Source: Verrucomicrobiia bacterium
Lineage (GTDB): Bacteria; Acidobacteriota; Polarisedimenticolia; Gp22-AA2
Reading direction: 5' to 3'
Assembly: GCA_035638075.1 (NCBI GenBank)
Contig: DASRAU010000046.1
Coordinates: forward strand, 101,283-165,282
Length of the DNA: 64,000 nucleotides
This document shows positions 10,307 to 33,992 of the stretch, in pieces. Every line of letters starts with the position of its first letter. The stretch's first letter is position 1. Both the position numbers and the translations under genes were made by a program. The notes under the pieces were generated by a model, which did not search any database, was not told the origin of the DNA, and saw only the letters and a list, made by a program, of their open reading frames with translations.

Positions 10307-11719
<1,413 letters not shown>

Positions 11720-14113: not shown

Positions 14114-14190
14114 CGTGCCTCCTTGCGAGTCTGAGTGGACGGTCGACGTGCCGGAGCCGTTCAACGCTCCGCTGCTCTCTTCACTGGCCC

Positions 14191-16832: not shown

Positions 16833-16834
16833 CG

Positions 16835-17386
16835 CTAGTCGACTTTGACGATGAGCGCGTTCGAATAGGTGACGTCGACGCGGTCGCCGGGCTTCACGCC
16901 CTTGAGGAGCTTCTTGTCCTCGACCCGGACGCTGACGGTGTGGTAGTCCCGGGCGAGGAAGGTGAGCACGCCCGAGCCGCGATCCACGTCCTTCACCAGC
17001 ACGGTCCCGGTCATCTGCCGGGTCACGGTACCGCCCGGCTTCGGCCCGGTGCCGCGGACGATCGACGCTTCCCCGCTCGCGGCGGCGGGCAGCGGCTGCC
17101 CCGGCTTGCGGACGCTCACCGCGATCGCTTCCGTGTACTCGAAGGTGACCGTGTCCCCGATCTGCAGCTCGTCGAAGCGCTGGATCCCGGGCTCGGCATA
17201 GAGGGTCTGGAGGTTGCCGTCTCTGTCCTTCAGGGACACGGTGCGGCCGGCGCGGTCGATCGCCTCGATCTTCGTCTTGAGGGTGATCGTCCCCTTCTTC
17301 TCGATCGGCTGCGGTTCCGCGGCGATCGCCGTCAGGGCCACGGCAAGCCCGATGCCGAGCGCGGCGACCAGCAGGATGCCTTTCAT
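16835..17386 (-). CDS. Secreted tandem CusF-like (OB-fold) two-repeat protein, paralog 1
   Basis: ATG 17386 with RBS GAGGAGGG; signal MKGILLVAALGIGLAVALTAIAAE. Two about 60-aa repeats (TITLKTKIEAIDRAGRTVSLKDRDGNLQTL..FDELQIGDTVTFEY and TGTVLVKDVDRGSGVLTF..LKGVKPGDRVDVTY). The repeats resemble CusF topology but lack its His/Met/Trp ligands. Confidence 0.6.
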   Translation of the reverse strand: MKGILLVAALGIGLAVALTAIAAEPQPIEKKGTITLKTKIEAIDRAGRTVSLKDRDGNLQTLYAEPGIQRFDELQIGDTVTFEYTEAIAVSVRKPGQPLPAAASGEASIVRGTGPKPGGTVTRQMTGTVLVKDVDRGSGVLTFLARDYHTVSVRVEDKKLLKGVKPGDRVDVTYSNALIVKVD

Positions 17387-17475
17387 GGCTGAACCCTCCT
17401 CAGGGGCGATCCCCCCCAGGATCATCGGGGCTTATATCACGGTGAGACCCGCTCCTGCTGCCAGGCGCGCGGGTT

Positions 17476-18198
17476 TCAGACGGCCTTCAAACCCTGAGAG
17501 CGGAACATCGCGACGGCGCGTTCCGCGCTCCCGGACGACGGCGGCTCGGTGGCCTCGAGCGTGTAGTCCATCTTCAGCTCCTTCCACTTGAAGCGCCCCA
17601 GCTGGTGGAACGGCAGGACGTCCACGCGCTCGACGTTGCCGAGTTCCCGGCAGAATGTCGCGATCGGCTCGATGTTCTCCACGTCGTCGGTCAGGCCCGG
17701 GACGAGGACGAAGCGGACCCAGACGGGACGCCGCTTCGCCGCCAGGCGACGGGCGAAGTCGTGCACCGGGCCGACCGGCTGCCCGGTGAGCCTGCGGTGC
17801 CGCGCGTCGTCCCACGTCTTGAGATCGAGGAGGACCAGGTCGAAGGCCTCCAGCTCGGCGTCCGACAGGCGCTCGCCGAGGAAGCCGTTGGTGTCGAGCG
17901 CCGTGTGGATCCCCATCCGGCGCGCCGCCGTGGCCAGGTTCACGACGAAGCGGTCCTGCACCAGCGGCTCGCCGCCGCTGATGGTGAGCCCGCCCGACAT
18001 CACCTGGAGCCCGCTGCGGTACTTCGCCAGCTCCTCCGTGGCACGCGCCAGGGTCACCGGGATGCCGTTGCTCATCTTCCAGGTGTCCGGGTTGTGGCAG
18101 TAGAGGCACTTGAACTGGCAGCCGGTGGTCCAGACGACCACGCGCATTCCCGGCCCGTCCACGGCCGACGCGGTCGTGAACGAATGCAGGAACCCCAT
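17476..18198 (-). CDS. pflA: Pyruvate formate-lyase activating enzyme (radical SAM)
   Basis: 240 aa from ATG 18198. GFLHSFTTASAVDGPGMRVVVWTTGCQFKCLYCHNPDTW matches the PflA N-terminus including the CxxxCxxC radical-SAM motif. Confidence 0.85.
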   Translation of the reverse strand: MGFLHSFTTASAVDGPGMRVVVWTTGCQFKCLYCHNPDTWKMSNGIPVTLARATEELAKYRSGLQVMSGGLTISGGEPLVQDRFVVNLATAARRMGIHTALDTNGFLGERLSDAELEAFDLVLLDLKTWDDARHRRLTGQPVGPVHDFARRLAAKRRPVWVRFVLVPGLTDDVENIEPIATFCRELGNVERVDVLPFHQLGRFKWKELKMDYTLEATEPPSSGSAERAVAMFRSQGLKAV

Positions 18199-18293
18199 CT
18201 GTCCGGTCTGGAGTGCGGTGCGGACGTCCGCTTCGGGAACGCCCTCGCCGAGATGGACCCGCAGCTCGTAGGGGCTTTTCGCTTCGAGGTCGC

Positions 18294-20567
18294 TCACGAG
18301 GCGCCCGCGCCGTGGAACGTGCGGTTGATGACGTCCATCTGCTGCTCTTTCGACAGCCGCACGAAGTTGACGGCGTAGCCCGAGACCCGGATCGTCAGGT
18401 GCGGGTACTTCTCGGGGTGATCCATCGCGTCGAGCAGCGTCTCGCGGTTCAGGACGTTGACGTTCATGTGGAAGCCGGTCGATCCGAAGAAGGCGTCGAG
18501 CGCGCCGCGCAGGTTGGCGATGCGATCTTCGGGAACGCGGCCCAGCCCCTCGGGAAGGATCGACGCGGTCAGCGAGATGCCGTCCGCCGCGTCGCGGTAG
18601 GGGATCTTCGCGACCGACGAGGCGGAGGCCTGCAGCCCGTGGCTGTCGCGCCCGTGCATGGGATTGGCCCCGGGAGCGAACGGTTCCCCCTGCCGCCGGC
18701 CGTCGGGGGTGTTGCCGGTGTTCTTGCCGTAGACCACGTTCGAGGTGATGGTGAGCACCGATTGCGTGTGCAGGGCGTTGCGGTAGGTCGGGTACTTGCG
18801 CAGCATGGCCATGAAGGTGCTGACGACCCACGACGCCAGGTGATCCACCCGGTTGTCGTTGTTGCCGAACTGCGGAGACTTGCCCTCGACCTTGTAGTCC
18901 TTCACGAGGCCGGTCTCGTCCCGCACGACCGTCACCTTCGCGTGCCGGATGGCCGACAGGCTGTCGGCGACGACCGACAGCCCAGCGATGCCGAAGGCCA
19001 TCGTCCGCAGCGGCGCGTAGTCGTGCAGCGCCATCTCCAGCCGCTCGTAGGCGTACTTGTCGTGCATGTAGTGGATGACGTTCATGGCGTTGACGTACAC
19101 GCCGGCGAGCCACTCCATCATCCGCTCGAACTTCTCGATCACGTCCTCGAAGACCAGCGCATCCCCCTGCACCGGATCGAAACGGGGCGCGATCTGTTCC
19201 CCGCTCATCTCGTCGCGGCCGCCGTTGATGGCGTAGAGGAGGCACTTGGCGAGATTGGTGCGGGCGCCGAAGAACTGCATCTGCTTGCCCAAAAGCATCG
19301 GCGAGACGCAGCAGGCGATGGCGCCGTCGTCCCCCCAGGCGCGGCGCATCATCTCGTCGCTCTCGAACTGGATCGACGAGGTCTCGATGGCCACCTTCGC
19401 GGCGTAGCTGCGGAACCCGTCCGGCAGCTTCGGCGAGTACCAGATCGTCAGGTTCGGCTCGGGGGCCGGCCCCAGCGTGGACAGCGTGTTGAGGAAGCGG
19501 AAGGAGCTCTTCGTCACGAGCGCGCGCCCGTCGTCCCCCATGCCGCCGATCGACTCGGTCACCCAGGTCGGATCGCCGGCGAACAGCTCGTCGTATTCCG
19601 GGGTGCGCAGGAAGCGGACGATGCGCAGCTTGATGACGAAGTCGTCGAGGATCTCCTGCGCCTGCTCCTCGGTCAGCGTCTTCTCCGTCAGGTCCCGCTC
19701 GAAGTAGACGTCGAGAAAGGTGGAAGTCCGCCCGAGCGACATGGCGGCGCCGTTCTGCTCCTTCACCGCCGCGAGATACGCGAAGTAGAGCCACTGCACC
19801 GCCTCCCGGGCGCTTGTCGCCGGGCCGGAGATGTCGAAGCCGTAGGCTTTGGCCATCTCCTGCAATTCGCCGAGGGCGCGGATCTGCTCGCTCAGCTCCT
19901 CGCGGTCGCGGATGATGTCCTCGGTGGACATGCGCGCGTCGAGCCGGTTCTTCTCGTTCTGCTTGCGCTCGACGAGGCGCGCCACGCCGTAGAGCGGCAC
20001 CCGCCGGTAGTCGCCGATGATGCGCCCGCGCCCGTAGGCGTCCGGCAGACCGGTGAGGATGTGCGAGGAGCGGCAGCGGCGGATGTCGGCGGTGTAGGCG
20101 TCGAACACGCCGTCGTTGTGCGTCTTGCGGTATTTCGTGAACGTCTCGACGACGTGCGGGTCGGCCTCGTAGCCGTAGGTCTTCAGCGCCCCCTGCACCA
20201 TGCGGAAGCCGCCGTTGGGCATGATGGCGCGCTTGAGGGGTGCTTCGGTCTGCAGCCCGACGATGATCTCCCGCTCGCGCTCGATGTAGCCGGGCTGGTG
20301 CGCCAGAATACCGCTGGGGATCTGCGAGATGTCGAGGACCCCCTTCTTGCGCTCCTCGACGAACAGGACGTTCAGCTTCTCCCAGATTCCCTGCGTCCGC
20401 TTCGTCGCCCCGGCGAGGAACGCTTCATCCCCTTCGTACGGCCGGTAGTTCGCCTGGATGAAGTCGCGGACGTCGATCTCCCGCTTCCACAGGCCGTCGG
20501 CGAACCCGCGCCAGGCCTTCGTCGTGTCGATCGGCTTCTTGTCCTCTTTCACTTTCACCGTCTTCAT
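18294..20567 (-). CDS. pflB: Formate C-acetyltransferase (pyruvate formate-lyase)
   Basis: 757 aa from ATG 20567 (verified: [11 protein letters not shown]). Catalytic Cys pair (GAIACCVSP) and C-terminal glycyl-radical motif [11 protein letters not shown]. Confidence 0.9.
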
Positions 20568-20581
20568 CGCCCTCACCTTCT

Positions 20582-21763
20582 TCACAATCCCAGAAGCGCG
20601 GCGGTGTGCCGCGCGATCATCAGCTCTTCGTTGGTCGGCACCACCCACGCCGACACCCGGCTCTTCGCGGTCGAGATCCGCGGGCCGCCACGCTCGTTCG
20701 CCGCCGCGTCGATCTCGAGGCCGAGCCAGGCGCAGGCCTCGACGATGCGCCGGCGGATCTCCGCCGAGTTCTCGCCGATGCCGGCGGTGAAGACGAGACC
20801 GTCCAGCCCCTGGAGCGTCGCCGCCATCGCCGCGACGTGCTGCGCGGCCGAGGAGACGAAGTAGTCCACCGCGAGGCGCGCCTCGGGCGCGTCGTTCCCC
20901 ACCAGGTCGCGCATGTCGTTGCTGATCCCGGAGATTCCGAGCAGTCCCGACTTCTTGTAGAGGAGTGTTTCGATCTCCTTCCCCGACATCCCCATCCCCT
21001 GCACCAGGTACAGGACCGCGCCGGGATCGAGGCTCCCGGGCCGCGTTCCCATGCACAGCCCGTCGAGCGCCGTGAACCCGAGCGTGGTATCCAGGCTCTT
21101 CCCGTTCTTCAGCGCGCAGAGGCTGGCGCCGCTGCCGAGGTGCGCGACGACGACCCGCTTCAGGGCGATCTCCGGCGCCACCTCGGGCAAGATTGAGGCG
21201 ATGTACTCGTACGACAGGCCGTGGAAGCCGTAGCGCTGCATCCCGGCATCGCGGAACTCTTTCGGAAGCGGGACCAGCTCGGTGACCGCCGCGCGCCCAC
21301 GGTGGAACGAGGTGTCGAAGCAGGCGACCTGGGGCACATCCGGGAGCTTTTCGAACACCGCCTCGATCGCCGCCAGGTTGTAGGGGACATGGAGCGGCGC
21401 CAGGGGAATGAGCTTCTTGAGCTCCGACAGGCATCGCGCGTCGACCTTGACCGGCGCCGTGTAGGTGGGACCGCCGTGCACGACGCGGTGCCCGACGCCC
21501 AGCACCTTGCCTCCTCCGAACTTCGAACGCAGCCAGGTGGCGACGGCGTCGAGCACCGGCCCGCCGTGCTTCAGCGACGCGTCGAGCTCCTGCCCGGCCA
21601 GCGGCTTGCCCTGCGCGTCCTTCACCGTGAGCTGCGGCTTGGTGCCGATTCCTTCGATCTGCCCGCGCGCCTCGAGTTCGAGGGCCCCCTGGCGAGGGTG
21701 CCCGAAGACGCGGAACTTCAGGCTCGAGGATCCGGCATTGAGAACGAGGAGATGATCGCCCAC
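20582..21763 (-). CDS. ackA: Acetate kinase; GTG start
   Basis: 393 aa from GTG 21763 (GAGGGG 4 nt upstream). N-terminal [14 protein letters not shown], plus HRVVHGG and the ASKHD-superfamily pattern. Confidence 0.85.
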
Positions 21764-21771
21764 GGCGCCCC

Positions 21772-22716
21772 TCAGGCTTTCGGAGCGGGGGTGCCGCGCC
21801 GGGCGTGCGCCGCCAGCATGGCGACGGCGCACGAGGCGATGCGGGCCCGCACGCTGTCGGCCCGGCTGGTCAGGATGATCGGCACCTTCGCCCCGAGCAC
21901 CAGCCCGGCGCTGTCGGCGTTCGCCAGGAAGGTGAGCTGCTTGGCGAGGATGTTGCCCGCCTCGAGGTCGGGGGCCAGCAGGATGTCGGGGTCCCCGGCG
22001 ACCTCGGACGTGATCCCCTTGATCTTCGCCGCCTCGGCGCTGATGGCGTTGTCGAACGCCAGCGGCCCGTCCAGTATCGCGCCGGTGATCTGCCCGCGGT
22101 CGGCCATCTTGCACAGCGCCGCGGCGTCGAGGGTCGCCGGCATCTTCGACGTCACCGTCTCGACCGCGGCCAGGATGGCGACCTTGGGCTTGTCCCGTCC
22201 CAGCGACACGACGAGATCGATGGCGTTGCGCAGGATGTCCGCCTTGTCCTCGAGCGTCGGCGCGATGTTGATGGCGCCGTCGGTGACCACCAGGACCTTG
22301 TGGTAGGTCGGCACGTCCATCACGAAGACGTGGCTGATGCGGCGCGCCGTGCGCAGCCCTCCCTCGCGCGCCACCACCGCCCCCATCAGCTCGTCGGTGT
22401 GCAGGCTGCCCTTCATCAGGAGCTCCGCCTTCCCCTCGCGCACGAGGGACACCGCCTTCTCCGCCGACCCGTGGCTGTGCGGCGCATCGACGATCTCGTA
22501 CGGCTTCAGGTCGAGCTTCGCCGCGGCGGCGACCGCGGCGATCTTCGCCGCCGGCCCGACCAGGATCGGCTTGATGAGCCCGAGCCGCGCCGCCTCGACG
22601 GCGCCGGACAGCGCCGACTCGTCGCACGGGTGCGCCACCGCCGTGGGGATCGGCTCGAGCCTGGCGCAGCGCTCCAAAAGGGCTTCGTATTTCCCGGTTC
22701 CGGTCCTGGCGCTCAT
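21772..22716 (-). CDS. pta: Phosphate acetyltransferase, short form (phosphate acetyl/butyryl-transferase family)
   Basis: 314 aa from ATG 22716 (codon 68 of the track ORF). Pta/Ptb-family motifs. Lies 8 nt upstream of ackA. Confidence 0.75.
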
Positions 22717-22729
22717 CGAATGCTCCCGT

Positions 22730-23968
22730 TCACGTGGGACTGCGCACGGCCGCCGCGGTCGCGGGGAGGGCCCGCCCTGCCCGCCCGGTCTCCTTGAGCA
22801 GGAGAGTGAGGACGATCGCCCCGGCGATTCCGTAGAGAAGCGGCGTGAAGGCGGCGCGGTAGTGCTCCAGCGCCATGGTCGCGGCGCCCCCCGAGGCGCG
22901 CCGCAGCGCCGCGGCAAAGAGGGGGCCGAGCAGGGCGCTCAGCGTGAAGTTCACGAAATTGATGACACCCGTCGCCGTGCCTCCGAGGGACGGCGGGTTG
23001 GCCTCCTTCACGACGGTGTACGGGATCATCGCCGCGCCCGAGGCGACTCCCATGGCAAGGCCGACGACGTACGGCGGCAGCGCGTCCGCTCTGCCGTACA
23101 GGGCCCACGCCGTGCACGCGAACACCATCAGGGCGCCGCCGAGAATCACCGGCTTGCGCCGGCCGAGCCGGTCGGAGATGAACCCGAGCAGCGGACAGCC
23201 GACGATCCAGCCGAACGGAACCGCCGCCGATCGCAGCACCGCCTCGGCGTACTCGAGGCCGTGCCCCTCCTGCAGGTAGCGCACGCCCCAGACCATGTCG
23301 AAGATCGTCGTCGGAATGAAGAGCAGCCCCGCGATGAGCCCGCACAGGATCGACTGCGGGTTCCTGAAGACGAGGCCGAACGCCGCCGCCAGGCCCGGCT
23401 TCGAACCTCCCGCCGGGGCGGCCGGCTTCCCCTTCGGCAGGATGAGCATCAGCACCGCGCCGATGAGAAGCCCGGCGACGCCCATCCCGATCCAGAACGC
23501 GCGCCAGGTCACTCCCGAGGCGATGAGCGGCCCGACCGCGAACTGCCCCACCGATCCTCCCGCCATGCCGCACATCTGCGTCGCGCCGATGAGGGTCGCG
23601 GCTTTCCCGGGAGGGAAGGCGCGCGTGGCGACGTCGATCGCCCCGATCAGGGCGAAGACGCCCCCCGCCCCCTGGAGGAAGCGGCCGCAGCCCGCCGCGG
23701 CCGGATGGCCGGTCGCGAACAGCAGCGCTCCGATCCCGACCATCGCCGCCGCCGCCGGGACCACCCGCGCGGCCCCGAGCCGGTCCATGGCGGCGCCGGA
23801 GACCAGGCTGAACGGAGAGTAGCCGTAGTAGAAGAGCCCGACGAGGGACGCGACCGCGAGGGCGCTGATGCCGAGCCCTTCCGAGAGCTGCGGCAGCATG
23901 ACGGCGGGGCAGGAGCGGGCGACGTACTGGTAGAAATAGAACATCGCCAGGACGAACCACGCCGCCAT
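22730..23968 (-). CDS. MFS transporter (substrate unknown)
   Basis: 12 TM segments with the MFS loop motif DRLGRRK between TM8 and TM9. Start is either ATG 23968 or GTG 24004. Confidence 0.65.
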   Translation of the reverse strand: MAAWFVLAMFYFYQYVARSCPAVMLPQLSEGLGISALAVASLVGLFYYGYSPFSLVSGAAMDRLGAARVVPAAAAMVGIGALLFATGHPAAAGCGRFLQGAGGVFALIGAIDVATRAFPPGKAATLIGATQMCGMAGGSVGQFAVGPLIASGVTWRAFWIGMGVAGLLIGAVLMLILPKGKPAAPAGGSKPGLAAAFGLVFRNPQSILCGLIAGLLFIPTTIFDMVWGVRYLQEGHGLEYAEAVLRSAAVPFGWIVGCPLLGFISDRLGRRKPVILGGALMVFACTAWALYGRADALPPYVVGLAMGVASGAAMIPYTVVKEANPPSLGGTATGVINFVNFTLSALLGPLFAAALRRASGGAATMALEHYRAAFTPLLYGIAGAIVLTLLLKETGRAGRALPATAAAVRSPT

Positions 23969-24016
23969 CGCGGCCCCGACGCCGGGCCTGCCGCCGCTCC
24001 CCACGACCTGCCGGTC

Positions 24017-25651
24017 CTAGCAGAGCGTGACGGAGACCGCCAGGCCGCCTTCGGAGGTCTCCTTGTACTTCGAGTTCATCTCCTTGGCGGTGAGCGCCAT
24101 GGCGTTGACCGTCGTGTCGAAGTCGAGGCGCCGGTTCACGGGAATCTCGTTGCTCGCGATCATGAACCCGGTCCAGGACTTGATCGCGCCGAAGGCGCAG
24201 CGCTCGATGCACGGCACCTGCACGTAGCCCGCGACCGGGTCACAGGTCATGCCGAGATGGTGCTCGATCGCCGCCTCCGCCGCGTTGGCGACGACCTGGG
24301 GCGGGAAGTCGTGCGCCTGGGCGATGAGGGCGGCCCCCATGCCGGAGGCAACACCAATCTCCGCCTGGCAGCCGCCTTCCGCGCCCGACAAGGTCGCGTT
24401 GTGCTTGCACAGGTACCCGACCCCCGCGGCGGCGAGCATGCCGTTGCGCAGCTTCTCCGGGGGGAGCTTGCGTCCCCCTTCGCCGAGGCCGTACAGCACG
24501 GCCGGGATGACGCCGGCCGAGCCTCCGGTGGGGGCCGTCACGACGAGGTGGCCGCGGGCGTTTTCCTCCGAACCCGCGAGAGCGTACGCCGCGACGACGC
24601 CGAGCCCGCGCTGCTTCTCGTACTCATCGTCCATCGCCCGCTTGTAGACCTCCCCCGCCTTGGTCTTGAGCTTGATCGGCCCGGGAAGCGTCCCCTCCGG
24701 CATCGCGAGGCCCGACTTCACGATGTTGCTCATGGCCAGCATGATCTTGTCCACGAAGGCGTTGATCTCCGCCTCGCTCTTCCCGGAGACCGCCACCTCG
24801 TTGGCCATCACCACCTGCGCCACCGACAGGTTGTTCTTGGTGGCGTGATCCACCAGCTCCTTCATCGTGGCGTACGGGTATTTCGGCTGCCCCTTCTTCG
24901 GCGGCTGGTACCCCTTCCACTCGATGAAGCCGCCGCCGACCGAGTAGTACTCCTGCTCCAGGAGGACCTTGTTGGCCGGCCCCAGGAGCTTGCAGGTCAT
25001 GGTGTTCGGGTGCGGGAAGGTGCCGTCCTTCTTGTCGTAGATGATGTCCTTGAGCGACATGTTCAGCGTCTTGTCGCCGAACTTCACCGGGAAGGTCTGA
25101 TCCGGCTTGTCACGCAGGCTGTCGAGGAACTCGGGCTCGACCGTGGCCGGCTCCTTGCCGATGATCCCGGCGAGGCAGGCCCGCTCGGTGCCGTGCCCCA
25201 GACCGGTGGCGCTGAGGCTGCCGAACAGGTGCACCTTCAGGCCGGCCACCTGCGCGAGCGTCGCGGCCGGGAGCTTGGTGCAGCGCTGGTAGAAGTCGTA
25301 GGTGATGCGCATCGGGCCGATGGTGTGGCTGCTCGACGGGCCCGGACCGACCTTGTAGAACTCCTCGATGGTCGTCATGACCGGCCCCTTCGACTTCTTG
25401 ACGACGTCGAGCGTCGGCGCCAGGGTGGTGGCGGTCTTGCCGGCCGGCTTGGCGGCGGGTTTCGCCGCGGCCGCCGTGGCCGCCTCGACTTCGGTGGTCG
25501 TCTTCCCCGTCAGGACCGCGGCGGCCCCGACGACGGCGGTGCGCAGGATGAACGCGCGGCGGTCGACCCCCTCGGGGACCTCCTCGAGCACTTCGGGCTC
25601 CACCGGAACGGGGTTCTCCACGGGTTTCTTCGGATCGTCCTGCATGTTCAT
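24017..25651 (-). CDS. sdaA: L-serine dehydratase, single-chain Fe-S type, with N-terminal Tat (twin-arginine) signal extension
   Basis: 544 aa; strong RBS AGAGGAGG. N-terminal extension contains DRRAFILRTAVVGAAAVLTG (RRxFIL plus h-region) and an Ala/Lys/Thr-rich linker. The SdaA core then begins MTTIEEFYKVGPGPSSSHTIGPM, followed by beta and alpha domains. Confidence 0.8.
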   Translation of the reverse strand: MNMQDDPKKPVENPVPVEPEVLEEVPEGVDRRAFILRTAVVGAAAVLTGKTTTEVEAATAAAAKPAAKPAGKTATTLAPTLDVVKKSKGPVMTTIEEFYKVGPGPSSSHTIGPMRITYDFYQRCTKLPAATLAQVAGLKVHLFGSLSATGLGHGTERACLAGIIGKEPATVEPEFLDSLRDKPDQTFPVKFGDKTLNMSLKDIIYDKKDGTFPHPNTMTCKLLGPANKVLLEQEYYSVGGGFIEWKGYQPPKKGQPKYPYATMKELVDHATKNNLSVAQVVMANEVAVSGKSEAEINAFVDKIMLAMSNIVKSGLAMPEGTLPGPIKLKTKAGEVYKRAMDDEYEKQRGLGVVAAYALAGSEENARGHLVVTAPTGGSAGVIPAVLYGLGEGGRKLPPEKLRNGMLAAAGVGYLCKHNATLSGAEGGCQAEIGVASGMGAALIAQAHDFPPQVVANAAEAAIEHHLGMTCDPVAGYVQVPCIERCAFGAIKSWTGFMIASNEIPVNRRLDFDTTVNAMALTAKEMNSKYKETSEGGLAVSVTLC

Positions 25652-25689
25652 CCTCCTCTTTCGTAACAGGTCTGTCCCGCCGCGATCGA

Positions 25690-26235
25690 CTACTCGACGG
25701 CGACGAGCAGTGCGTTCGTGTAGGTGATCTCCACTTTGTCCCCCGGGTGGACGTTCTTCACCAGGCTCTTGTCCTCCACGCGGACGCTGACGCTGTGGCC
25801 GTCCTCGCCCATGAAGGTGATCGAGCTGTTCTTCGTGTCGACCGCCTTCACGGTGACGGACGCGGTGACCTGCTGGGTCATCGTGCCGCTCGGCTTCTCG
25901 GTCGCGCCGCGGACGATCGCCGGCTGGCCGTCGGAGTTCGCCTGGACGGGGTCACCCGGCTTGCGGATGCGCACCGCCACCGACTCGGTGTACTTGAAGG
26001 ACACCTTGTCCCCGACCTTCAGCTCGTCGAACCGCTTGATCTCGGGCCCGGCGGTGAGCGTCTCGTAGTTGCCGTCCTTGTCCTTGAGCGTGACCGTGCG
26101 GGCGGCATGATCGATCGCCTCGATCGTGGTCTTGACGGTGACCGTGCCGGTCTCGATCTTCGGCTTCGCATCGGCCGCGAACAGGGGAGCGGCGGCGAGG
26201 AGCACGGCGGCGACGGTGAGCGAGGTCTTCTGCAT
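25690..26235 (-). CDS. Secreted tandem CusF-like two-repeat protein, paralog 2
   Basis: ATG 26235 (AGGAGGG RBS); signal MQKTSLTVAAVLLAAAPLFAADA. Repeats TVTVKTTIEAIDHAARTVTLKDKDGNYETL..FDELKVGDKVSFKY and VTASVTVKAVDTKNSSITF..VHPGDKVEITY. Confidence 0.6.
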   Translation of the reverse strand: MQKTSLTVAAVLLAAAPLFAADAKPKIETGTVTVKTTIEAIDHAARTVTLKDKDGNYETLTAGPEIKRFDELKVGDKVSFKYTESVAVRIRKPGDPVQANSDGQPAIVRGATEKPSGTMTQQVTASVTVKAVDTKNSSITFMGEDGHSVSVRVEDKSLVKNVHPGDKVEITYTNALLVAVE

Positions 26236-26452
26236 GAGGCGATCCCTCCTGGGCATCGATGAGTTGTCTGAAACGGCCGAAGCATAGTCCCATTCCTCGA
26301 GGCGCGGCGAATCTCTTTTTTTGAGCTCGAGGAGGAGGGTGGCGGGGATGCCAGGATTCGCGCCGGTTTCCCGGCCCCTCCCGGCCGGATGGAGAGTCCC
26401 GCGTGCGCAGCGCCATCGACTCGCTCATCCAGACGCAGAGACCTCTCTCCAG

Positions 26453-27997
26453 TCACTCCTTCCCCGATTCGGGCTGGGTTGCCAGGGTCGAAGTGATTCG
26501 ATCCCGGATCACCTGGAAAAAAGGATTGCTGCGGAGCCGTGCGAAGGCGCCGAGTGGGACGAGGAGGGCGCCGGACTCGCCGCGGGCCTCGAAGGCGCCG
26601 AGCTGGAAGCGCGGCTCGGCGGGCGCCGGGGCGATTCCGTAAACCGGATCGTCGGGGGGGATGGGCAGGGCGACATGGCCGAGGGAGAAGACGCCCTTGG
26701 GCCACTCGAACGGCAAGTCCTCGTGACGTTCGCCGCCGGCCGCCGCGTCGGCCGGGCTCGGGGGGGCGCCCGCCTCGCGCTCGAACAGGGCGACGGCGTT
26801 CGAGCCGTCGGGGCGATTGCCGACGATCGTCACGCGGAACGGCAGCGACGGAACGGCGCGCAGATTCTGCAGCGTCTGGGTCGGGCCCGGAGCGATGAGC
26901 CCTTCCATCTCGCTGCGGCGGTTGATGTCGAAGACGACCAGCTCGTTTCCCGGGCCGGGGAGTCTCGAGAGCAGGCCGTGCACCACCTCCGCGGCGGTCA
27001 CGGTCGAGTCGACCAGCGACTGGAACACGGTGACGCGCGGCATCCGGTCGAGGCGTTTCTTCTCCCCCGCCTCCACGAGCTCCGCGTTCAGGACGTGCGT
27101 CAGCGCGTAGATCTGGTTGCCGGCGTTCACCGGGAACGAGTTGTACTTGTACGGGTCGTATTCCGGCAGGACGTCGATCCACTGCGACTTCTCGAAGGCC
27201 GGCAGGAACGACAGCCCCGAGACGATGTTGGTCAGCACCGCGAACGGCGAGATGCCGATGGCCGGCGACACCAGGAAGAGCCGCTCGGGGCGCGGCAGCG
27301 AGTCGTCCGCCGCCGCCCGCACGGCATAGAGCGAGAGCAGGGCGGAGCCGGTCGAGTGCCCGGCGGCGAAAAACGGGTGCCCCGCGCCGGCGCGCGAGGC
27401 GGTGTAGCGCGCCGCGAGCGCGACCGCGGCATACCAGTCCTGCCAGGTGACGTCCCGCAGCGCCCCGGGGATCGTGCCGTGTCCCGGAAGGCGCAGCACC
27501 ACGACGTCGAATCCCTGGGCGAAGAAGACCTGGGCGATGCCGCGCATGCTGTAGGGCGAATCCGACAGCCCGTGCACCAGCAGCACCGCCCCGCGGGGCG
27601 TCGTCGCGGGGGTCAGCTCGTAGGAATGGTTGTGCTCGGTGTCGAGCGCGAGGCGCTCGGGGACGCTGCCTGGATGGTAGCGGCTCAACAGGAACGGGTC
27701 GGCCGCCTTCGGATCGTCCAGCACCTTTTTCCGCAGCTCGGCGAACAGCCGATCCTCGAGCTTGCGGTACTCCTCGAACGTCTTGGGCGCTCCATGGGCA
27801 CCCTGGGCGCCGGCGCGGAATTCCTCGTCGAGACGCACCTTGTGCCAGGCGTGCAGGTCGGAGAGCCGGACGCGCGCCTGGATCGCGAACAGGAGAACGA
27901 TGCCGCCGAGGGCCGACAACGCCAGCGCGGCGACGGCCAGGAAGGTTTTTCCCAGCCGTCGCCGCCAGCGGCCCGGTGGAGCAGGGTGGGGGCCCAT
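26453..27997 (-). CDS. Alpha/beta-hydrolase-fold protein (lipase/esterase-like), N-terminally membrane anchored
   Basis: 514 aa. N-terminal TM FLAVAALALSALGGIVLLFAI. Nucleophile elbow GHSTGS and LLVHGLSDSP motifs. Confidence 0.65.
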   Translation of the reverse strand: MGPHPAPPGRWRRRLGKTFLAVAALALSALGGIVLLFAIQARVRLSDLHAWHKVRLDEEFRAGAQGAHGAPKTFEEYRKLEDRLFAELRKKVLDDPKAADPFLLSRYHPGSVPERLALDTEHNHSYELTPATTPRGAVLLVHGLSDSPYSMRGIAQVFFAQGFDVVVLRLPGHGTIPGALRDVTWQDWYAAVALAARYTASRAGAGHPFFAAGHSTGSALLSLYAVRAAADDSLPRPERLFLVSPAIGISPFAVLTNIVSGLSFLPAFEKSQWIDVLPEYDPYKYNSFPVNAGNQIYALTHVLNAELVEAGEKKRLDRMPRVTVFQSLVDSTVTAAEVVHGLLSRLPGPGNELVVFDINRRSEMEGLIAPGPTQTLQNLRAVPSLPFRVTIVGNRPDGSNAVALFEREAGAPPSPADAAAGGERHEDLPFEWPKGVFSLGHVALPIPPDDPVYGIAPAPAEPRFQLGAFEARGESGALLVPLGAFARLRSNPFFQVIRDRITSTLATQPESGKE

Positions 27998-28050
27998 GCG
28001 CGCATCATGTCATGCGAACCACGTCCGGCGGGCGCGCGCCGCCGGCCGTC

Positions 28051-28761
28051 TTACTTGTGCGAAGGCTTGACGCTCAGGAGCAGAGCGTTCGTGTAGGTGA
28101 TCTCGACGCGGTCCCCTGCCTTGACGTTGTCCAGGAGATCCTGGTCGTCGACCTTCACGGTCATCGTCCGGCCGTCGTCGGTCTCGAACGAGATCGATCT
28201 CTCGCTCGGATCGACGTCCTTGACGGTGACGAGGGACGTGACCTGCTGCGTCAGGGAGCCGGTGTTGGTGCCGGAAGGGCTGGCCGCGCCGCTTCCCGCT
28301 CCGCCGCCCGGAGCCCCGGGCTCCTTGGTCGGCGTGCCGGGGGTCGGCGCGCCGGAGGGGGTGTCCATCCCCGACGGCGTCTGAGGCGCACTCGAGGGAG
28401 TGTCGGATTCGTCCTCCGGGTATCCGGACGCCGGCCGCGGGGCCATGGTGTCGGCTTCGTCCGCCGGCCGGATCTGGAGAGCCCGGCCCTCGACGTACTT
28501 GAACGTGGCCCGCTCCCCGACCTTCAGGGAGTCGAAGGCCCCGATGTCGGAGCCGGCCTGGACCGTCACCAGATCACCGTCCTGATCCTTGAAGGTGACG
28601 GTGCGGGTCGCGGGATCGATGGCCTCGACAGTGCTCTTGACCGTGACGGCGTCACCGGACTTTTTCGTCTCCGTCGACTTGTGATCGGGGTGCCCGCTGT
28701 CGGCGGCCAGGAGCGGCAGCGCGACGAGGCAGGCGGACAGGAACAGAACCGTTTTCTTCAT
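28051..28761 (-). CDS. Secreted tandem CusF-like two-repeat protein, paralog 3, with Pro/Ser/Gly-rich linker
   Basis: ATG 28761 with RBS AAGGAGAG; signal MKKTVLFLSACLVALPLLAAD. Repeats AVTVKSTVEAIDPATRTVTF.. and LVTVKDVDPSERSISF..VKAGDRVEITY are separated by a low-complexity PSG-rich linker. Confidence 0.6.
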   Translation of the reverse strand: MKKTVLFLSACLVALPLLAADSGHPDHKSTETKKSGDAVTVKSTVEAIDPATRTVTFKDQDGDLVTVQAGSDIGAFDSLKVGERATFKYVEGRALQIRPADEADTMAPRPASGYPEDESDTPSSAPQTPSGMDTPSGAPTPGTPTKEPGAPGGGAGSGAASPSGTNTGSLTQQVTSLVTVKDVDPSERSISFETDDGRTMTVKVDDQDLLDNVKAGDRVEITYTNALLLSVKPSHK

Positions 28762-28816
28762 GATCTCTCCTTCTCTCTCCTTGAATGTTTCGGTGCGACG
28801 CGCGCGGCGCCTGTGG

Positions 28817-29467
28817 TCAGTCTTCAGGCTCGCAGCTGACGAGCACCGCGTTGGTGTAAGTCATCTCGATCTGGTCGCCGGCGTGCAGGTTCTTCACCAG
28901 GTCCCGATCGTCCACGTGAGTGCTCACGGTGTGGCCGTCCTCGGTTTCGAAGGTGATCCAGTGTCCTTTCGGATCCACGTCCTTGACCGTGACGACCGAC
29001 GTGACCTGCTCGCCCACCAGGGAGACGGGTTCATCGCCGGAGGGACCGTACTCCGTCGGGCTGCCCGCCGCCGCGGCGGACTCATCGCCGCCCGGAGCGC
29101 TGCCGGACGGACTGTCGTAGGGGGCGCCGCTGGGGTCGCCGCCGGAAGGATTGGTGACATGTGTTCCGGCCTGGCCCGCCGGGTGGGTCTGGAGGACCAC
29201 CCCTTCGGTGTAACGGAAAGTCACCTTGTCCCCGACCTTCAGGTCGTCGAAGCCCTGCACGTCGGGTCCGGCCTGGACCGTGACCAGGTGGCCGTCCCGA
29301 TCCTTGAGCGTGACGGTGCGGGCGGTGTGGTCGATCGCCTCGACGGTGGTCTTGACCTTGACGGTGTCGGACTTCGAGACCGAGGGCCGGTCCTCCGCGG
29401 CATAAAGAGGCGCCGCCAGGAGGGCGGCGCCGAGAACGAACGCGGCTTTCTTCAGCATGGACTTCAT
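28817..29467 (-). CDS. Secreted tandem CusF-like two-repeat protein, paralog 4
   Basis: C-terminal real part of the 1725-aa track ORF. ATG 29467 (RBS GGAGGAGG), signal MKSMLKKAAFVLGAALLAAPLYAAE, same two-repeat architecture. The remainder of the track ORF is antisense to the RND genes and rejected. Confidence 0.6.
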   Translation of the reverse strand: MKSMLKKAAFVLGAALLAAPLYAAEDRPSVSKSDTVKVKTTVEAIDHTARTVTLKDRDGHLVTVQAGPDVQGFDDLKVGDKVTFRYTEGVVLQTHPAGQAGTHVTNPSGGDPSGAPYDSPSGSAPGGDESAAAAGSPTEYGPSGDEPVSLVGEQVTSVVTVKDVDPKGHWITFETEDGHTVSTHVDDRDLVKNLHAGDQIEMTYTNAVLVSCEPED

Positions 29468-29566
29468 CACGAAACCTCCTCCGCACTCCCGGACCCAAGC
29501 AGGGTAAAAGCCGCTCCCGTCCGACTCCATACCCCGGACCACGCAAGCCCGGGACAGAATCCTCGC

Positions 29567-29572
29567 TATAAT
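29567..29572 (+). promoter_or_regulatory. Candidate -10 hexamer (TATAAT) for the RND efflux operon
   Basis: Perfect TATAAT 30 nt upstream of the adaptor ATG (29603), in the 135-nt divergent intergenic region. No clear -35 element. Confidence 0.35.
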
Positions 29573-29602
29573 CCCGTCCGCTCGAGGATCCGGGGTCAAT
29601 CG

Positions 29603-30817
29603 ATGCGATGGCGTGAAGCCGCTGGCGGCCTCCTGGCCGCGTTCGTCCTGCTCTCTCCCTCCGCCTGCAAGGAAGAGGCGGCGCCCGAGGCGAAGCCGCT
29701 CGAGGTGCCGGTCGTCAAGGTGATCCAGCGCGACACCCCGATCACCGCCGAGCGGGTGGGGCAGATCTACGGCGCCCAGGACATCGAGATCCGGGCGCGC
29801 GTCCCCGGCTTCCTGCAGGGGATGCATTTCAAGGAGGGGTCGAACGTCCACAAGGGCGACCTCCTCTACACCATCGACCCGAGCGAGCAGCAGGCGCAGG
29901 TGGCGCACGCCGAGGCCGATCTGGCCTCCGCGAAGACGCGCCACGTCAAGGCCGTCGCGGACGTGAACCGCTACCGGCCGCTCGCCGAGATGAAGGCGGT
30001 CTCGCAGGCCGACCTCGACTCGGCGGTGGCCGAGGAGGGCGCGTCGCGCGGCCAGGTCGACGCGGCCGAGGCGAGCCTGCGCCTCTCGAAGATCAGCCTC
30101 GGCTACACGCGCATCTCGTCGCCCATCGACGGCCTCATCGGCATGACGCAGGCGAAGGTCGGCGACTACGTCGGCCAGTATCCCAACCCGATCGTGCTCA
30201 ACACCGTCTCGAACGTGGCGTCGGTGCAGGCGCGCTTCGCCATCACCGAGCGCGACTACCTCGACCTGATGCGCAAGTTCGGACCGCCGCACGAAGGCAG
30301 CGAGCCGCGCATGCACCACGACAACATCGAGCTGCTTTTGGCGGACGGTTCGGTCTACCCGCACAAGGGATCGCTCGACTTCGCCAACCGCCAGATCGAT
30401 CCCTCGACCGGGACGCTGCAGCTGCAGGCGACCTTCCCCAACCCCGACGCCATCCTGCGCCCCGGCCAGTACGCGCGCGTGCGCATCATCATCGACACCC
30501 GCAAGGGAGCCCTGCTGGTGCCGCAGCGCGCCGTGCAGGAGCTGCAGGGACAGCAGATGGTGACCATCGTCGGCCCGGACGGCGCGGCGGCGACGAAGAC
30601 CATCCAGACGGGGCCGCGCATCGGGGCCCTGGTGGTGGTGGACTCGGGGCTGCAGCCGGAGGATCGGATCGTCCTTGCCGGAGCGCAGAAGATCCGGCCG
30701 GGCGTGAAGGTGATTCCGAAGGAAGTCTCCGCGGAGGAGGCCGCCCCCGAGTCCGCGCCCGGCCAGCCCGCCGCGGCGCCGAAGGCGCCCGCCCCGGCAC
30801 CACCCGCGTCCCACTGA
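29603..30817 (+). CDS. RND efflux periplasmic adaptor subunit (AcrA/MexA family lipoprotein)
   Basis: 404 aa. Lipobox LLSPSAC. Membrane-fusion-protein coiled-coil/lipoyl/beta-barrel pattern. Confidence 0.85.
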   Translation: MRWREAAGGLLAAFVLLSPSACKEEAAPEAKPLEVPVVKVIQRDTPITAERVGQIYGAQDIEIRARVPGFLQGMHFKEGSNVHKGDLLYTIDPSEQQAQVAHAEADLASAKTRHVKAVADVNRYRPLAEMKAVSQADLDSAVAEEGASRGQVDAAEASLRLSKISLGYTRISSPIDGLIGMTQAKVGDYVGQYPNPIVLNTVSNVASVQARFAITERDYLDLMRKFGPPHEGSEPRMHHDNIELLLADGSVYPHKGSLDFANRQIDPSTGTLQLQATFPNPDAILRPGQYARVRIIIDTRKGALLVPQRAVQELQGQQMVTIVGPDGAAATKTIQTGPRIGALVVVDSGLQPEDRIVLAGAQKIRPGVKVIPKEVSAEEAAPESAPGQPAAAPKAPAPAPPASH

Positions 30818-30820
30818 GCG

Positions 30821-33800: not shown

Positions 33801-33991
33801 GCGCCTCCGGCGCCGGCGCCGAGGGGCGCAAGGTCATGGGGATGGCGGTGTTCGCCGGCATGCTCGTCGCGACCATCGTCGGCGTCGTGCTGATCCCGGT
33901 CCTGTTCACCTTCGTCGAGAAGATCACCGGTGGCGGCAGGCACAAGCCGGCGCCCCCCGGCGGCGAAACCAAGCCGGCGGCGGCGCACTGA
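30821..33991 (+). CDS. RND multidrug efflux permease, HAE1 (AcrB/MexB-like)
   Basis: 1056 aa. N-terminus MAKFFVNRPIVAMVLSIVTVLLGLVALTRVPVAQYPDIVPP is nearly collinear with AcrB. 12 TM segments plus two large periplasmic loops. Confidence 0.9.
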   Translation: MAKFFVNRPIVAMVLSIVTVLLGLVALTRVPVAQYPDIVPPMIQITTTYVGASAVDVEQSVATPIEQQVNGVDNSIYLKSINANDGTLTMRVSFEVGTDLDIANVLTQNRLSQATASLPTSVKNYGVTVKKSLAFPLMLVALKSPNGTYDSAFLSNYAAININDALARIRGVGQVNLFGGSDYAMRIWLNPDRLASLGLTVPDIVKAVQQQNVVTPAGQLGGQPAPPGTDFTYIVKTQGRLMTAEEFGSIVLRTNPDGSQVRLGDVARTELGSLLYTARGRLNGNPSAVIAIYQAPGSNALQVSDAIKKTVAEAASRFPSDLDYEFSLDTTLPVREGINEILHTLLEAVVLVLIVVFIFLQNWRATLIPLLTVPVSLVGTLMAFPMLGFSVNVLSLLGLVLAIGIVVDDAIVVVEAVMHHIEHGLTPKDATLKAMEEVSGPVVAIALILSAVFVPVAFISGITGRLYQQFAITIAISVLLSAFNALTLSPALSAMLLKPKGESKSFLDPFYKWFNRVFDRFTSGYVGLTGFMVKRMVRSLIVVAILIVATVMLARRIPGGFVPEEDEGYVMVNVQLPDAASLDRSDAVCKRVEAILGKTEGIASYTTVTGYSMLTSAYASNNAFFFVSLKPWHERHGAAHTSRGIMAELNHEFALTIPEATVFAFGPPAIPGLGTGSGFTFVLQDRSGQAPQYLADEAQKFVAAASKRPEIGRIITTYRASVPQVYAEVDRDKVLKQGVTIDDVNTTMGAFLGGSYVNDFNRFGRVYKVFVQAEPEYRVRREDLSLFHVRNSKNEMVPLSSFVSTANAAGPEYTNRFNLFRSADLTGIPAPGYSSAQALGALEQVAAETLDAGAGYDWADMSYQEKKAAGSSAVVFAFAILLVFLILAAQYESWSLPFSVLLGTPFAAFGAFLGLWLMRFLSESYVNNVFAQIGLVMLIGLAAKNAILIVEFARAKLHEGMPIVEAALEGAKLRFRPILMTAFAFILGVVPLVRASGAGAEGRKVMGMAVFAGMLVATIVGVVLIPVLFTFVEKITGGGRHKPAPPGGETKPAAAH

Positions 33992-33992
33992 C

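Follow-up and report, generated by a model that had tools for sequence, protein, structure and literature searches.

Iron-sulfur L-serine dehydratases are textbook cytoplasmic enzymes. The sdaA-like gene described here lies in a stretch of bacterial DNA of 64,000 nucleotides that was analysed as a whole (the window), and the protein that it encodes begins with about 90 residues that include a twin-arginine motif. The question is whether this extension is a genuine part of the protein, and whether it takes a serine dehydratase out of the cytoplasm, as had been proposed from the sequence alone. Our answer, to which we give a probability of about 0.7, is that the gene encodes the Tat-signal precursor of a [4Fe-4S] serine dehydratase that would be exported, so that serine is deaminated in the periplasm and the resulting pyruvate fermented inside the cell. 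The features on which this reading is built are collected in Table 1.

Table 1. The sdaA gene, the parts of its product and the genes that follow it, in window coordinates. Residue numbers are those of the 544-aa form.
Feature	Position	Strand	Description	Basis
sdaA-like gene	24017..25645	(-)	fused beta-alpha (type 2) [4Fe-4S] L-serine dehydratase precursor, 542 aa from ATG 25645	
alternative sdaA start, ATG 25651	24017..25651	(-)	544 aa	
Shine-Dalgarno AGGAGG	25652..25657	(-)	6 nt 5' of ATG 25645; abuts ATG 25651	sequence read
n-region	25565..25651	(-)	residues 1-29, acidic, Pro-rich	
twin-arginine motif	25541..25564	(-)	D30-R-R-A-F-I-L-R37	homologue alignment
h-region	25505..25540	(-)	TAVVGAAAVLTG; 12 residues, Gly/Ala/Thr-rich, weakly hydrophobic	
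c-region	25481..25504	(-)	KTTTEVEA; K50 basic; predicted signal peptidase I site V55-E-A57↓A58	
linker and pre-domain segment	25379..25480	(-)	residues 58 to ~76 Ala/Lys/Thr/Pro-rich, then conserved L-x-P-x-L-D-V-V-K-K-S-K-G-P-V	
SDH_beta domain	24914..25363	(-)	residues 97-246, with GPGPSSSHT motif	
SDH_alpha catalytic domain	24038..24838	(-)	residues 272-538; cluster-ligand cysteines C428, C470, C481 and clade-specific C485	
cysteines within SDH_alpha	24368-24370; 24242-24244; 24209-24211; 24197-24199	(-)	C428; C470; C481; C485	
C-terminal Cys544	24020..24022	(-)	end ...VTLC aligns to final residue of 4RQO, whose chain also ends in Cys	
MFS transporter	22730..24004	(-)	12 nt 3' of sdaA	
pta	21772..22716	(-)	phosphate acetyl/butyryl transferase, 314 aa, without signal peptide	
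ackA	20582..21763	(-)	acetate kinase, 393 aa, without signal peptide	
pflB	18294..20567	(-)	pyruvate formate-lyase, glycyl-radical enzyme, 757 aa, without signal peptide	
pflA	17476..18297	(-)	PFL-activating radical-SAM enzyme, 273 aa	

The enzyme and its translation start

The longer open reading frame (544 aa) is present exactly as described earlier. Pfam finds SDH_beta (PF03315, E = 9e-41) followed by SDH_alpha (PF03313, E = 7e-64) in one chain, and the protein scores 396.4 bits against TIGR00720 (sda_mono; cut-off 345.1). Residues 90-544 align to the Legionella enzyme of PDB entry 4RQO (E = 8e-84) through the last residue. C428, C470 and C481, in the motifs GCQxExG, TCDP and PCIER, align with the cysteines of 4RQO and are invariant in 40 aligned homologues; the GPSSSHT loop (GPGPSSSHTIGPM) is likewise invariant in the homologue alignments. 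By these criteria of sequence the reading frame encodes a genuine, complete fused (type 2) [4Fe-4S] L-serine dehydratase. An oxygen-labile activity converting L-serine to pyruvate and ammonia would be expected from the homology and from the linkage to pyruvate-consuming enzymes. The E. coli-type equivalogs NF011614 and NF011598 gave 281.7 and 270.4 bits, below their cut-offs of 873 and 942, and the protein is not orthologous to the enzymes of enterobacteria. We note that Cys485 takes the place of the Asn that follows the PCIER ligand motif. Sitting next to the cluster, this clade-specific cysteine might be an adaptation of the cofactor to periplasmic conditions.

The E. coli-type models begin to match at residues 94-97 and the alignment with 4RQO covers only residues 90-544; residues 1 to ~90 are therefore without counterpart in the model enzymes. 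The extension of some 90 residues ahead of the canonical SdaA start, one of the observations of the sequence-only reading, is thus upheld by the alignment.

Two ATG codons could initiate the long form. The AGGAGG sequence lies 6 nt 5' of ATG 25645 and directly abuts ATG 25651, so the real start is probably 25645, giving a protein of 542 aa. This form is called by NCBI (HYV20931.1) and by ENA, with JGI calling 544 aa. An exact look-up gave no entry for the 544-aa product but did return the 542-aa product of the second ATG, which settled the choice of start codon.

A start as far downstream as the Met of MTTIEEF (Met92) would make the extension an artefact of annotation, with the 270 nt upstream an untranslated leader, open by coincidence. 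The list of open reading frames does contain many long spurious frames, as expected at 70% GC, and a weak Shine-Dalgarno-like AAGGGG precedes Met92. However, the GC3 of the extension is 0.93 (0.95 in the remainder of the gene), AGGAGG precedes the long start, and at least 589 genomes conserve the amino-acid pattern of the extension. The short form beginning at Met92 was absent from a collection of 15 billion proteins, and the long form is the one called by NCBI, ENA and JGI alike. Within the homologue set (the 120 best homologues, or 121 sequences with the window protein) Met92 is kept in 87% and replaced by Ile or Leu in 16, and in 14 of the 120 the stretch from signal to catalytic domain contains no Met. 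Taken together, the Shine-Dalgarno sequence before ATG 25645, the coding GC3, the long form from three pipelines and the replacement of Met92 by Ile or Leu indicate that the extension is translated. The artefact is effectively refuted by the comparative data, and the start had not been mis-called. The coding GC3 of the extension, and its presence in all 120 best homologues and in at least 589 genomes, put it well outside what chance would produce.

The predicted twin-arginine signal and its variation

Residues R31, R32, F34 and R37 are found without exception in the 121 sequences, and the genome loci that were read also carry the motif. It occupies residues 30-37 (28-35 counted from the probable start), placing the arginine pair inside the first 35 residues. 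Compared with the Tat consensus (S/T)-R-R-x-F-L-K, there is Asp in place of the usual Ser/Thr before the arginine pair. The n-region varies in both sequence and length among homologues, with 12-76 residues before RR (median 28). The string DRRAFILRTAVVGAAAVLTG that had been singled out earlier corresponds to residues 30-49 (25505..25564), i.e. the motif together with the h-region. The latter has a maximum 12-mer Kyte-Doolittle value of 1.9, whereas six Sec signals of the window reach 2.3-2.8.

The next residue, K50, is at the position of the classical 'Sec-avoidance' residue, where other orthologues have a lipobox Cys. Of the 120 homologues, 64 have Cys directly after the invariant G49; in 81 sequences read from genome loci (two of them mis-registered) the residue there is Cys in 25, Arg or Lys in 38 and another residue in 18. 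Thus a lipobox Cys replaces the basic residue in about a third to a half of orthologues. These read L/M/I-T-G-C (also L/M/I-T/A/S-G↓C), whereas the L-T-G-K of the window protein does not match the lipobox pattern [LVI][ASTVI][GAS]C. The orthologues lacking the Cys have, at a conserved spacing, AxA-type sites (VSA↓E, ARA↓Q) equivalent to VEA↓A in the window protein; all of these are consensus matches only. A switch between lipobox Cys and AxA site at one fixed position makes sense only for an exported protein. By its sequence features, then, the extension reads as a twin-arginine (Tat) signal peptide. The RRxFIL-type motif, h-region and AxA-type site noticed previously are all recognisable, as an invariant motif, a short and weak h-region, a basic residue and VEA↓A; the sequence-level predictions of the Tat interpretation on motif, h-region and c-region were all borne out.

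The Tat profile TIGR01409 scored 18.4 bits (cut-off 16.7) on a 32-residue segment and 7.3 bits when the long acidic n-region was included; homologues scored 14.5-20.9. With the whole 91-residue extension Pfam and NCBIfam gave sub-threshold matches only, TIGR01409 going unreported and no Pfam Tat-signal family appearing. An AlphaFold model based on 40 close homologues was poor (mean pLDDT 61) and was therefore used solely for the absence of an extra fold. It has a helix at residues 31-48 and disorder at residues 63-106, and at this low confidence it suggests that the extension adds no folded domain, just one helix and then a disordered linker. The conserved segment immediately before the domains is missing from canonical SdaA. 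A crude motif search of the window for tatA-like genes and further RR signals returned the SdaA signal itself only. That this search detected no tat genes in the window is uninformative, since they are usually encoded elsewhere.

The signal might not be cut at all, but remain as a Tat-inserted N-terminal anchor in the manner of Rieske proteins, holding SdaA at the outer face of the inner membrane via the Ala/Pro/Lys linker. The long flexible linker after the h-region resembles a tether, the window protein has a long c-region (8 residues) in which VEA↓A is merely a consensus match, and many orthologues are predicted lipoproteins that would be tethered anyway. Yet an h-region of 12 residues is too short for a membrane anchor, i.e. 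for a stable transmembrane helix, and the non-Cys orthologues keep good AxA-type sites at a conserved distance. We consider an uncleaved anchor distinctly unlikely, and have set it aside.

A scan of species-representative genomes for SdaA homologues with RR-signal extensions found the same extension encoded in at least 589 species genomes, with labels from about seven phyla; these include Acidobacteriota, Planctomycetota, Verrucomicrobiota, Proteobacteria, Myxococcota and Chloroflexota. The gene is present in the cultured strains Vineibacter terrae CC-CFT640, Microvirga pudoricolor BT291 and Rhodospirillales URHD0017, so that export is directly testable. The nearest relatives without a leader are the SdaA proteins of Nitratidesulfovibrio, with ~46% identity to the window protein. 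Full-length SdaA proteins with an N-terminal RR signal also occur in Desulfovibrionaceae (P0132/P0278, 493 aa) and Syntrophales (P0131, 502 aa), where they are annotated merely as L-serine ammonia-lyase. These share ~41-42% identity with the window protein. Their signals (MTLRRTFLK..., MDRRDF...) are ~30-50 residues long and lack the long linker; the Syntrophales protein retains Asn after PCIER, in contrast to the Cys of the window SdaA, and their neighbours are PPDK_N/PEP-utilizer genes and a dCache sensor kinase, not PFL as at the window locus. Their Tat signals are probably independent acquisitions.

These distributions bear on the objection that the RR segment is not an export signal and SdaA stays in the cytoplasm, the extension serving for peripheral membrane association by a serine importer, for regulation or for chaperone binding. 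The partner enzymes are indeed all cytoplasmic, as are the Fe-S serine dehydratases characterised so far, and the TIGR01409 score is marginal in the full-length context. But the repeated exchange of lipobox Cys and signal peptidase I site at a fixed position would have no rationale if the membrane were never crossed, the canonical Tat features are all conserved across at least 589 genomes, and other SdaA lineages have Tat signals of probably independent origin. A cytoplasmic role for the extension is in our view very improbable. From its sequence, SdaA probably works outside the cytoplasm.

The fermentation cassette and a possible periplasmic route

The genes pta, ackA, pflB and pflA follow sdaA on the same strand, in agreement with the earlier description of sdaA as heading a pta-ackA-pflBA string. 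That description omitted the MFS gene between sdaA and pta, however, and with a CusF-like gene ending 38 bp upstream it is not obvious that the transcript begins with sdaA. A consensus promoter and terminator scan of 14000-29000 gave 0 promoter-like sites and a number of terminator-like sites equal to the shuffle expectation, and so was uninformative. The sdaA-MFS-pta-ackA-pflB-pflA cassette recurs across phyla. Across 80 loci encoding Tat-SdaA, pflB is linked in 46 and pflA in 44, and an MFS gene is found nearby in 34, usually directly downstream.

The window also encodes other, presumably secreted ammonia-releasing enzymes, as the sequence-only reading had pointed out: asparaginase, glutaminase and an Amidohydro_2 protein all have Sec-type signals. 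Outer-membrane porins are encoded alongside these genes. The window further encodes a DASS transporter and an aspartase/fumarase-family lyase (Lyase_1 plus FumaraseC_C).

We infer export, the cleavage site, periplasmic activity and the substrate of the MFS transporter, and the following scheme is offered on that basis. Translation would begin at ATG 25645, and SdaA would fold and gain its cluster in the cytoplasm, for which reason Tat would be needed rather than Sec. The Tat translocase would recognise DRRAFILR and the short h-region, and the folded SdaA would cross the inner membrane. Signal peptidase I would then cut near VEA57↓A58, leaving the mature enzyme with its flexible Ala/Lys/Pro/Thr linker; where orthologues have the lipobox Cys (roughly a third to a half of them) the enzyme would instead be lipid-tethered. 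Periplasmic SdaA would convert L-serine to pyruvate and NH4+, beside the Sec-exported asparaginase and glutaminase encoded nearby. As the enzymes of the downstream pathway are all cytoplasmic, pyruvate would have to be re-imported, most plausibly via the MFS transporter directly downstream of sdaA. Finally, cytoplasmic PflB/PflA, Pta and AckA would convert pyruvate to formate, acetate and ATP under anoxia. A point against this scheme is that an oxygen-labile cluster would be more exposed in the periplasm.

The MFS transporter has weak similarity to the anion:cation symporter subfamily (TIGR00893, 68 bits, far below cut-off). It had no relative among solved structures, and the databases give it generic names only. 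It is a candidate pyruvate importer, or alternatively an exporter of formate or acetate. Several sdaA-pta-ackA-pfl loci have no MFS gene, and at one locus (L082) an MFS gene heads pta-ackA-pflBA with sdaA absent, so that a formate exporter is equally possible.

Pyruvate re-import would no longer be needed with dual localisation, in which the long form is exported and an internal start at Met92 (ATG 25376-25378) yields a leaderless cytoplasmic SdaA that feeds PflB. Met92 is within one residue of the canonical SdaA start, and its codon is ATG in 71 of 82 gene copies (ATC/ATA in 5 and TTG/CTG in 6). In the sequence AAG GGG CCG GTC ATG a Shine-Dalgarno-like AAGGGG is positioned 6 nt 5' of Met92, and the Gly codon 6 nt upstream is GGR (GGG/GGA) in 52% of copies, compared with 30% elsewhere in the gene. 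The Lys codon at this site, on the other hand, has no enrichment of AAG, and these codon counts ignore relatedness. Moreover, the ATC/ATA of five copies and the CTG of two are poor initiators, the exchange of Met for Ile or Leu is the pattern of a buried hydrophobic residue, and the short form is called by no pipeline. Dual localisation thus seems to us unlikely.

In its most far-reaching form the proposal is that a horizontally mobile cassette, present in at least 589 species genomes with labels from about seven phyla, exports a catalytic, non-redox [4Fe-4S] dehydratase via Tat, either soluble or lipid-tethered, with serine deaminated in the periplasm, only pyruvate entering the cell, and fermentation through PFL. 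We judge its chances to be a little better than even.

Significance and comparison with known systems

A search of the full-text literature, in which few subscription journals were covered and novelty is thus unproven, turned up no account of a serine dehydratase that is periplasmic or exported by Tat. To our knowledge the Tat-exported Fe-S proteins known so far are electron carriers, none of them (de)hydratases. If the proposal is correct, SdaA would be the first Fe-S amino-acid dehydratase of the periplasm, and anaerobic catabolism of amino acids and the release of ammonium in soils would have an extracytoplasmic step that has gone unrecognised. The catalogue of periplasmic chemistry would be enlarged. 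In soil, many abundant lineages with few cultured members (labelled Acidobacteriota, Planctomycetota and Verrucomicrobiota) would remove the ammonium from serine outside the cell and import the keto acid only, which would bear on the modelling of nitrogen mineralisation in soil and of anaerobic fermentation; genome-scale reconstructions having a cytoplasmic SdaA and a serine importer would be incorrect for such organisms. The Tat-SdaA family is, in addition, a source of a natural Tat signal in which the peptidase I and lipoprotein modes have been exchanged repeatedly.

The window SdaA shares the fused beta-alpha architecture of the Legionella pneumophila L-serine dehydratase (PDB 4RQO) and of E. 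coli SdaA, SdaB and TdcG, and like these type 2 enzymes it keeps GPSSSHT, the three cluster-motif cysteines and the C-terminal Cys. The known enzymes are cytoplasmic and start at the equivalent of V91/M92, whereas the window protein has ~90 extra residues, comprising the Tat signal and linker.

The Tat pathway exports folded proteins by means of an RR signal, after insertion of the cofactor in the cytoplasm. In its RR signal, weak h-region and basic c-region the window SdaA is similar to Tat-exported Fe-S proteins such as HiPIP, the hydrogenase small subunits, NrfC/NapG-type ferredoxins and the Rieske proteins. Those proteins function in electron transfer, while SdaA would be a non-redox, aconitase-like periplasmic Fe-S (de)hydratase.

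In Campylobacter serine is imported and then deaminated by a cytoplasmic SdaA. The scheme proposed here resembles that of the type II asparaginase AnsB, periplasmic glutaminase and gamma-glutamyl transpeptidase (Campylobacter, Helicobacter), where ammonia is freed outside the cytoplasm and import is confined to the carbon skeleton. These enzymes are cofactor-free and exported by Sec; the window SdaA is an Fe-S protein with a predicted Tat signal.

The enzyme and translation of its N-terminal extension

The open reading frame of 544 aa described in the sequence-only reading is present, and by every sequence-level criterion its product belongs to the single-chain Fe-S L-serine dehydratases. A Pfam scan assigned residues 97-246 to SDH_beta and 272-538 to SDH_alpha. 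The NCBIfam model TIGR00720 (single-chain L-serine ammonia-lyase) gave 396 bits (curated cut-off 345), while the protein fell below the narrow E. coli equivalog models of NCBIfam. In comparison with solved structures it aligns from residue 90 to its last residue with the Legionella pneumophila L-serine dehydratase (4RQO; E = 8e-84), retaining the GPSSSHT loop, the three cysteines C428, C470 and C481 in the motifs GCQxExG, TCDP and PCIER, and the C-terminal cysteine. The canonical enzyme has nothing equivalent to residues 1 to ~90. The Legionella initiator methionine pairs with V91, so the earlier placement of the canonical start at MTTIEEF (i.e. Met92) was right. Public records call the extended proteins merely 'L-serine ammonia-lyase'.

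We note that the residue following PCIER (Cys485, 24197-24199) is cysteine in this protein and in 120/120 extended-clade homologues, whereas it is asparagine in 134 canonical SdaA proteins lacking the extension, in Legionella 4RQO and in the short-Tat form from Syntrophales. On this comparison C481-x3-C485 is a clade-specific pair beside the [4Fe-4S] cluster.

Several independent grounds indicate that the extension is translated. It is present in all 120 of the best homologues (77-94% identity); 16 of these have Ile or Leu in place of Met92, and 14 have no methionine at all between signal and catalytic domain. GC3 is 0.93 in the extension against 0.95 in the remainder of sdaA. No short form from Met92 was found in a collection of ~15 billion proteins. 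The sequence AGGAGG at 25652-25657 abuts the first ATG (25651) and is 6 nt before the second (25645), so the latter is the probable start, giving a 542-aa product. The identical public protein HYV20931.1 ('L-serine ammonia-lyase', from a MAG labelled Verrucomicrobiae) has 542 aa at NCBI; the length is called as 542 aa by ENA and 544 aa by JGI. A mis-called start is effectively excluded by the comparative data.

There is a limited case for an extra cytoplasmic isoform initiated internally at Met92. This codon is ATG in 71 of 82 gene copies, but ATC or ATA in five and CTG in two. A Shine-Dalgarno-like AAGGGR lies 6 nt before the ATG (25376-25396, with homologous sites in the comparison loci L001-L080). 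GGG or GGA encodes the Gly of K-G-P-V-M in 52% of copies, compared with 30% for Gly codons elsewhere in the gene (uncorrected for relatedness), and this GGR enrichment hints weakly at an internal start.

Architecture and distribution of the signal

Alignment of 33 diverse N-termini gives the pattern P-x-G-V-D-R-R-x-F-[LMI]-x-R-[ST]-A-x-x-G-A-x-A-V-x-T-G, in which both Arg, the Phe, an Arg four residues on and the Gly closing the hydrophobic stretch are invariant. The stretch is Gly/Ala/Thr-rich and just 12 residues long, with a top 12-mer Kyte-Doolittle score of 1.9, against 2.3-2.8 for six Sec-type signals in the window. Weak hydrophobicity over so short a stretch is typical of Tat h-regions, and 12 residues are too few for a transmembrane anchor. 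The curated Tat-signal profile TIGR01409 (cut-off 16.7 bits) gave 18.4 bits for the isolated segment, 7.3 when the long acidic n-region was included, and 14.5-20.9 on homologues, which makes the profile result no more than marginally positive. In several properties the predicted signal is of Tat type and unlike a Sec signal or a membrane anchor.

The residue directly after the hydrophobic stretch is K in the window protein. At this position R/K is found in 38 of 81 genome-locus sequences, Cys in 25 and another residue in 18 (two reads mis-registered); Cys is also present in 64 of 120 protein homologues. The Cys forms read [LMI]-[TAS]-G-C, a textbook lipobox. The R/K forms have VSA|E-type sites further along. 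A third group, whose loci bear Planctomycetota, Verrucomicrobiota, Alphaproteobacteria and other labels, carries WTPEARA|QQAA. The predicted site in the window protein is VEA57|A58. Within one subclade Cys is found in locus L071 where L052, L064, L073 and L078 have Arg. The segment might alternatively act as an uncleaved tether, or have a role other than export. That it crosses the membrane is argued most strongly by the repeated exchange of lipobox Cys and peptidase-I site at one fixed position.

In the N-terminal alignment the signal is followed by an Ala/Lys/Thr/Pro linker of variable length, and the segment L-S-P-D-L-D-V-V-K-K-S-K-G-P-V is conserved between linker and catalytic domain. In a low-confidence AlphaFold model (mean pLDDT 61) residues 31-48 form a helix; another short helix follows, then disorder to residue 106, with no additional folded domain seen in the extension.

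Scanning one genome per GTDB species by N-terminal alignment, we found the extension encoded in at least 589 species genomes. Labels among the 79 loci kept include many Acidobacteriota classes, Planctomycetota, Verrucomicrobiota, Myxococcota, Steroidobacteraceae, Limnocylindrales and Alphaproteobacteria, the last including the cultured Vineibacter terrae (two copies), Microvirga pudoricolor and Rhodospirillales URHD0017. Among the matches listed the top one is a Candidatus Polarisedimenticolia genome (92% identity). The closest species-representative locus listed, L002, is from Candidatus Polarisedimenticolia (Acidobacteriota), with cassette identities of 92-96%. This conflicts with the deposited taxonomy, HYV20931.1 and HYV20930.1 (identical to the window's proteins, on a 189-kb contig) being filed as 'Verrucomicrobiae bacterium'. 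Among representatives clustered at 50% identity, the extended clade collapses to one full-length sequence (69% identity) and fragments, and the nearest leaderless enzymes, from Nitratidesulfovibrio, are only ~46% identical. Across phyla identities are 65-85% for SdaA and ~80% for PflB, which point to horizontal spread of the cassette.

Short classic Tat signals occur on SdaA proteins more distant from the window protein, in Desulfovibrionaceae (P0132/P0278, 493 aa; MTLRRTFLK...) and Syntrophales (P0131, 502 aa; MDRRDF...). These are probably independent acquisitions. A further SdaA, P0148, has a short Tat-like signal (KRCFLK...) with a possible lipobox; the short-signal set also includes loci L085/L086. 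Beside the Desulfovibrionaceae gene lie two genes of the PPDK_N/PEP-utilizer type, together with a dCache histidine (sensor) kinase and its response regulator.

Gene neighbourhood

Genes around sdaA in the window
Feature	Coordinates	Strand	Remarks
Third CusF-like paralogue	28051-28761	minus	
CusF-like signal-peptide protein	25690-26256	minus	ends 38 bp before sdaA
sdaA	24017..25651	minus	directly after CusF-like gene, then MFS
MFS transporter	22730-24004	minus	follows sdaA
pta	21772-22716	minus	no signal peptide
ackA	20582-21763	minus	no signal peptide
pflB	18294-20567	minus	no signal peptide
pflA	17476-18297	minus	follows pflB
Second CusF-like protein	16835-17425	minus	after pflA
DUF3011 protein, 522 aa	15264-16832	minus	after second CusF-like; signal peptide, porin-like C-terminus
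Amidohydro_2 protein	14191-15366	minus	with signal
DcaP-type porin	12860-14194	minus	
Glutaminase	11797-12837	minus	Sec-type signal
Aspartase/fumarase-family lyase	10307-11785	minus	
DASS transporter	8890-10296	minus	
Type II asparaginase	6131-7207	minus	Sec-type signal; further on from DASS

In 80 loci the extended SdaA is linked to PflB (46), PflA (44), AckA (42), MFS (34), Pta (33), the DUF3011 protein (21) and Amidohydro_2 (12). The CusF-like paralogues (~190-236 aa, each with a signal peptide and, at the C-terminus, a weak CusF_Ec-like match) are conserved just in the closest relatives (5/80 loci). In the DUF3011 protein that domain is N-terminal, and the long C-terminal part, ending ...NMEMNF, resembles an outer-membrane beta-barrel. 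Downstream of the PFL cassette, 6131-15366 (minus) holds clustered genes for amino-acid catabolism whose products have an extracytoplasmic flavour, and comparable genes lie around the homologue P0003. Upstream is a divergent RND efflux system (28760-35444, plus strand) of membrane-fusion protein, 1056-aa AcrB-family pump and OEP outer-membrane factor, then a DUF481 protein.

The MFS transporter matches the anion:cation symporter subfamily weakly, below threshold, and has generic database names only; no relative was found among solved structures. At locus L082 (ERZ28493135, 6.1-Mb contig; 8001-14558) MFS heads pta-ackA-pflB-pflA without sdaA, and thus MFS is part of the PFL core. Ahead of that module come a DcaP porin, a 513-aa protein without Pfam match and a DUF2950 protein. 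FocA exports formate in E. coli; the MFS protein may do likewise, or may import pyruvate. Its substrate may be formate or acetate instead of pyruvate.

Proposed function and comparison with known systems

We consider it likely, at roughly seven chances in ten, that Tat-exported SdaA deaminates periplasmic serine and that the pyruvate is imported and fermented. The precursor would fold and acquire its [4Fe-4S] cluster in the cytoplasm, and be exported in folded form via Tat. Signal peptidase I would then cleave it, Cys-type orthologues being lipidated instead. The exported enzyme would deaminate L-serine in the periplasm, and imported pyruvate would be fermented to formate and acetate, with generation of ATP. 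What is demonstrated is confined to family membership, the conserved catalytic residues, a signal that is both translated and conserved, and gene linkage; export, cleavage, activity and transport are inferred.

What sets this otherwise ordinary enzyme apart is its predicted export signal, which was not to be expected, is deeply conserved and occurs widely. This should surprise specialists in Tat and the periplasm, and it bears on soil nitrogen and carbon cycling. Export is still purely a prediction, and cultured carriers offer a direct test of it. The full-text literature covered (most subscription journals lie outside it) yielded no account of a serine dehydratase that is periplasmic or exported by Tat. 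The Tat-exported Fe-S proteins known to us are redox carriers; a (de)hydratase among exported Fe-S proteins is not known to us. SdaA would behave like a Tat-exported cofactor protein.
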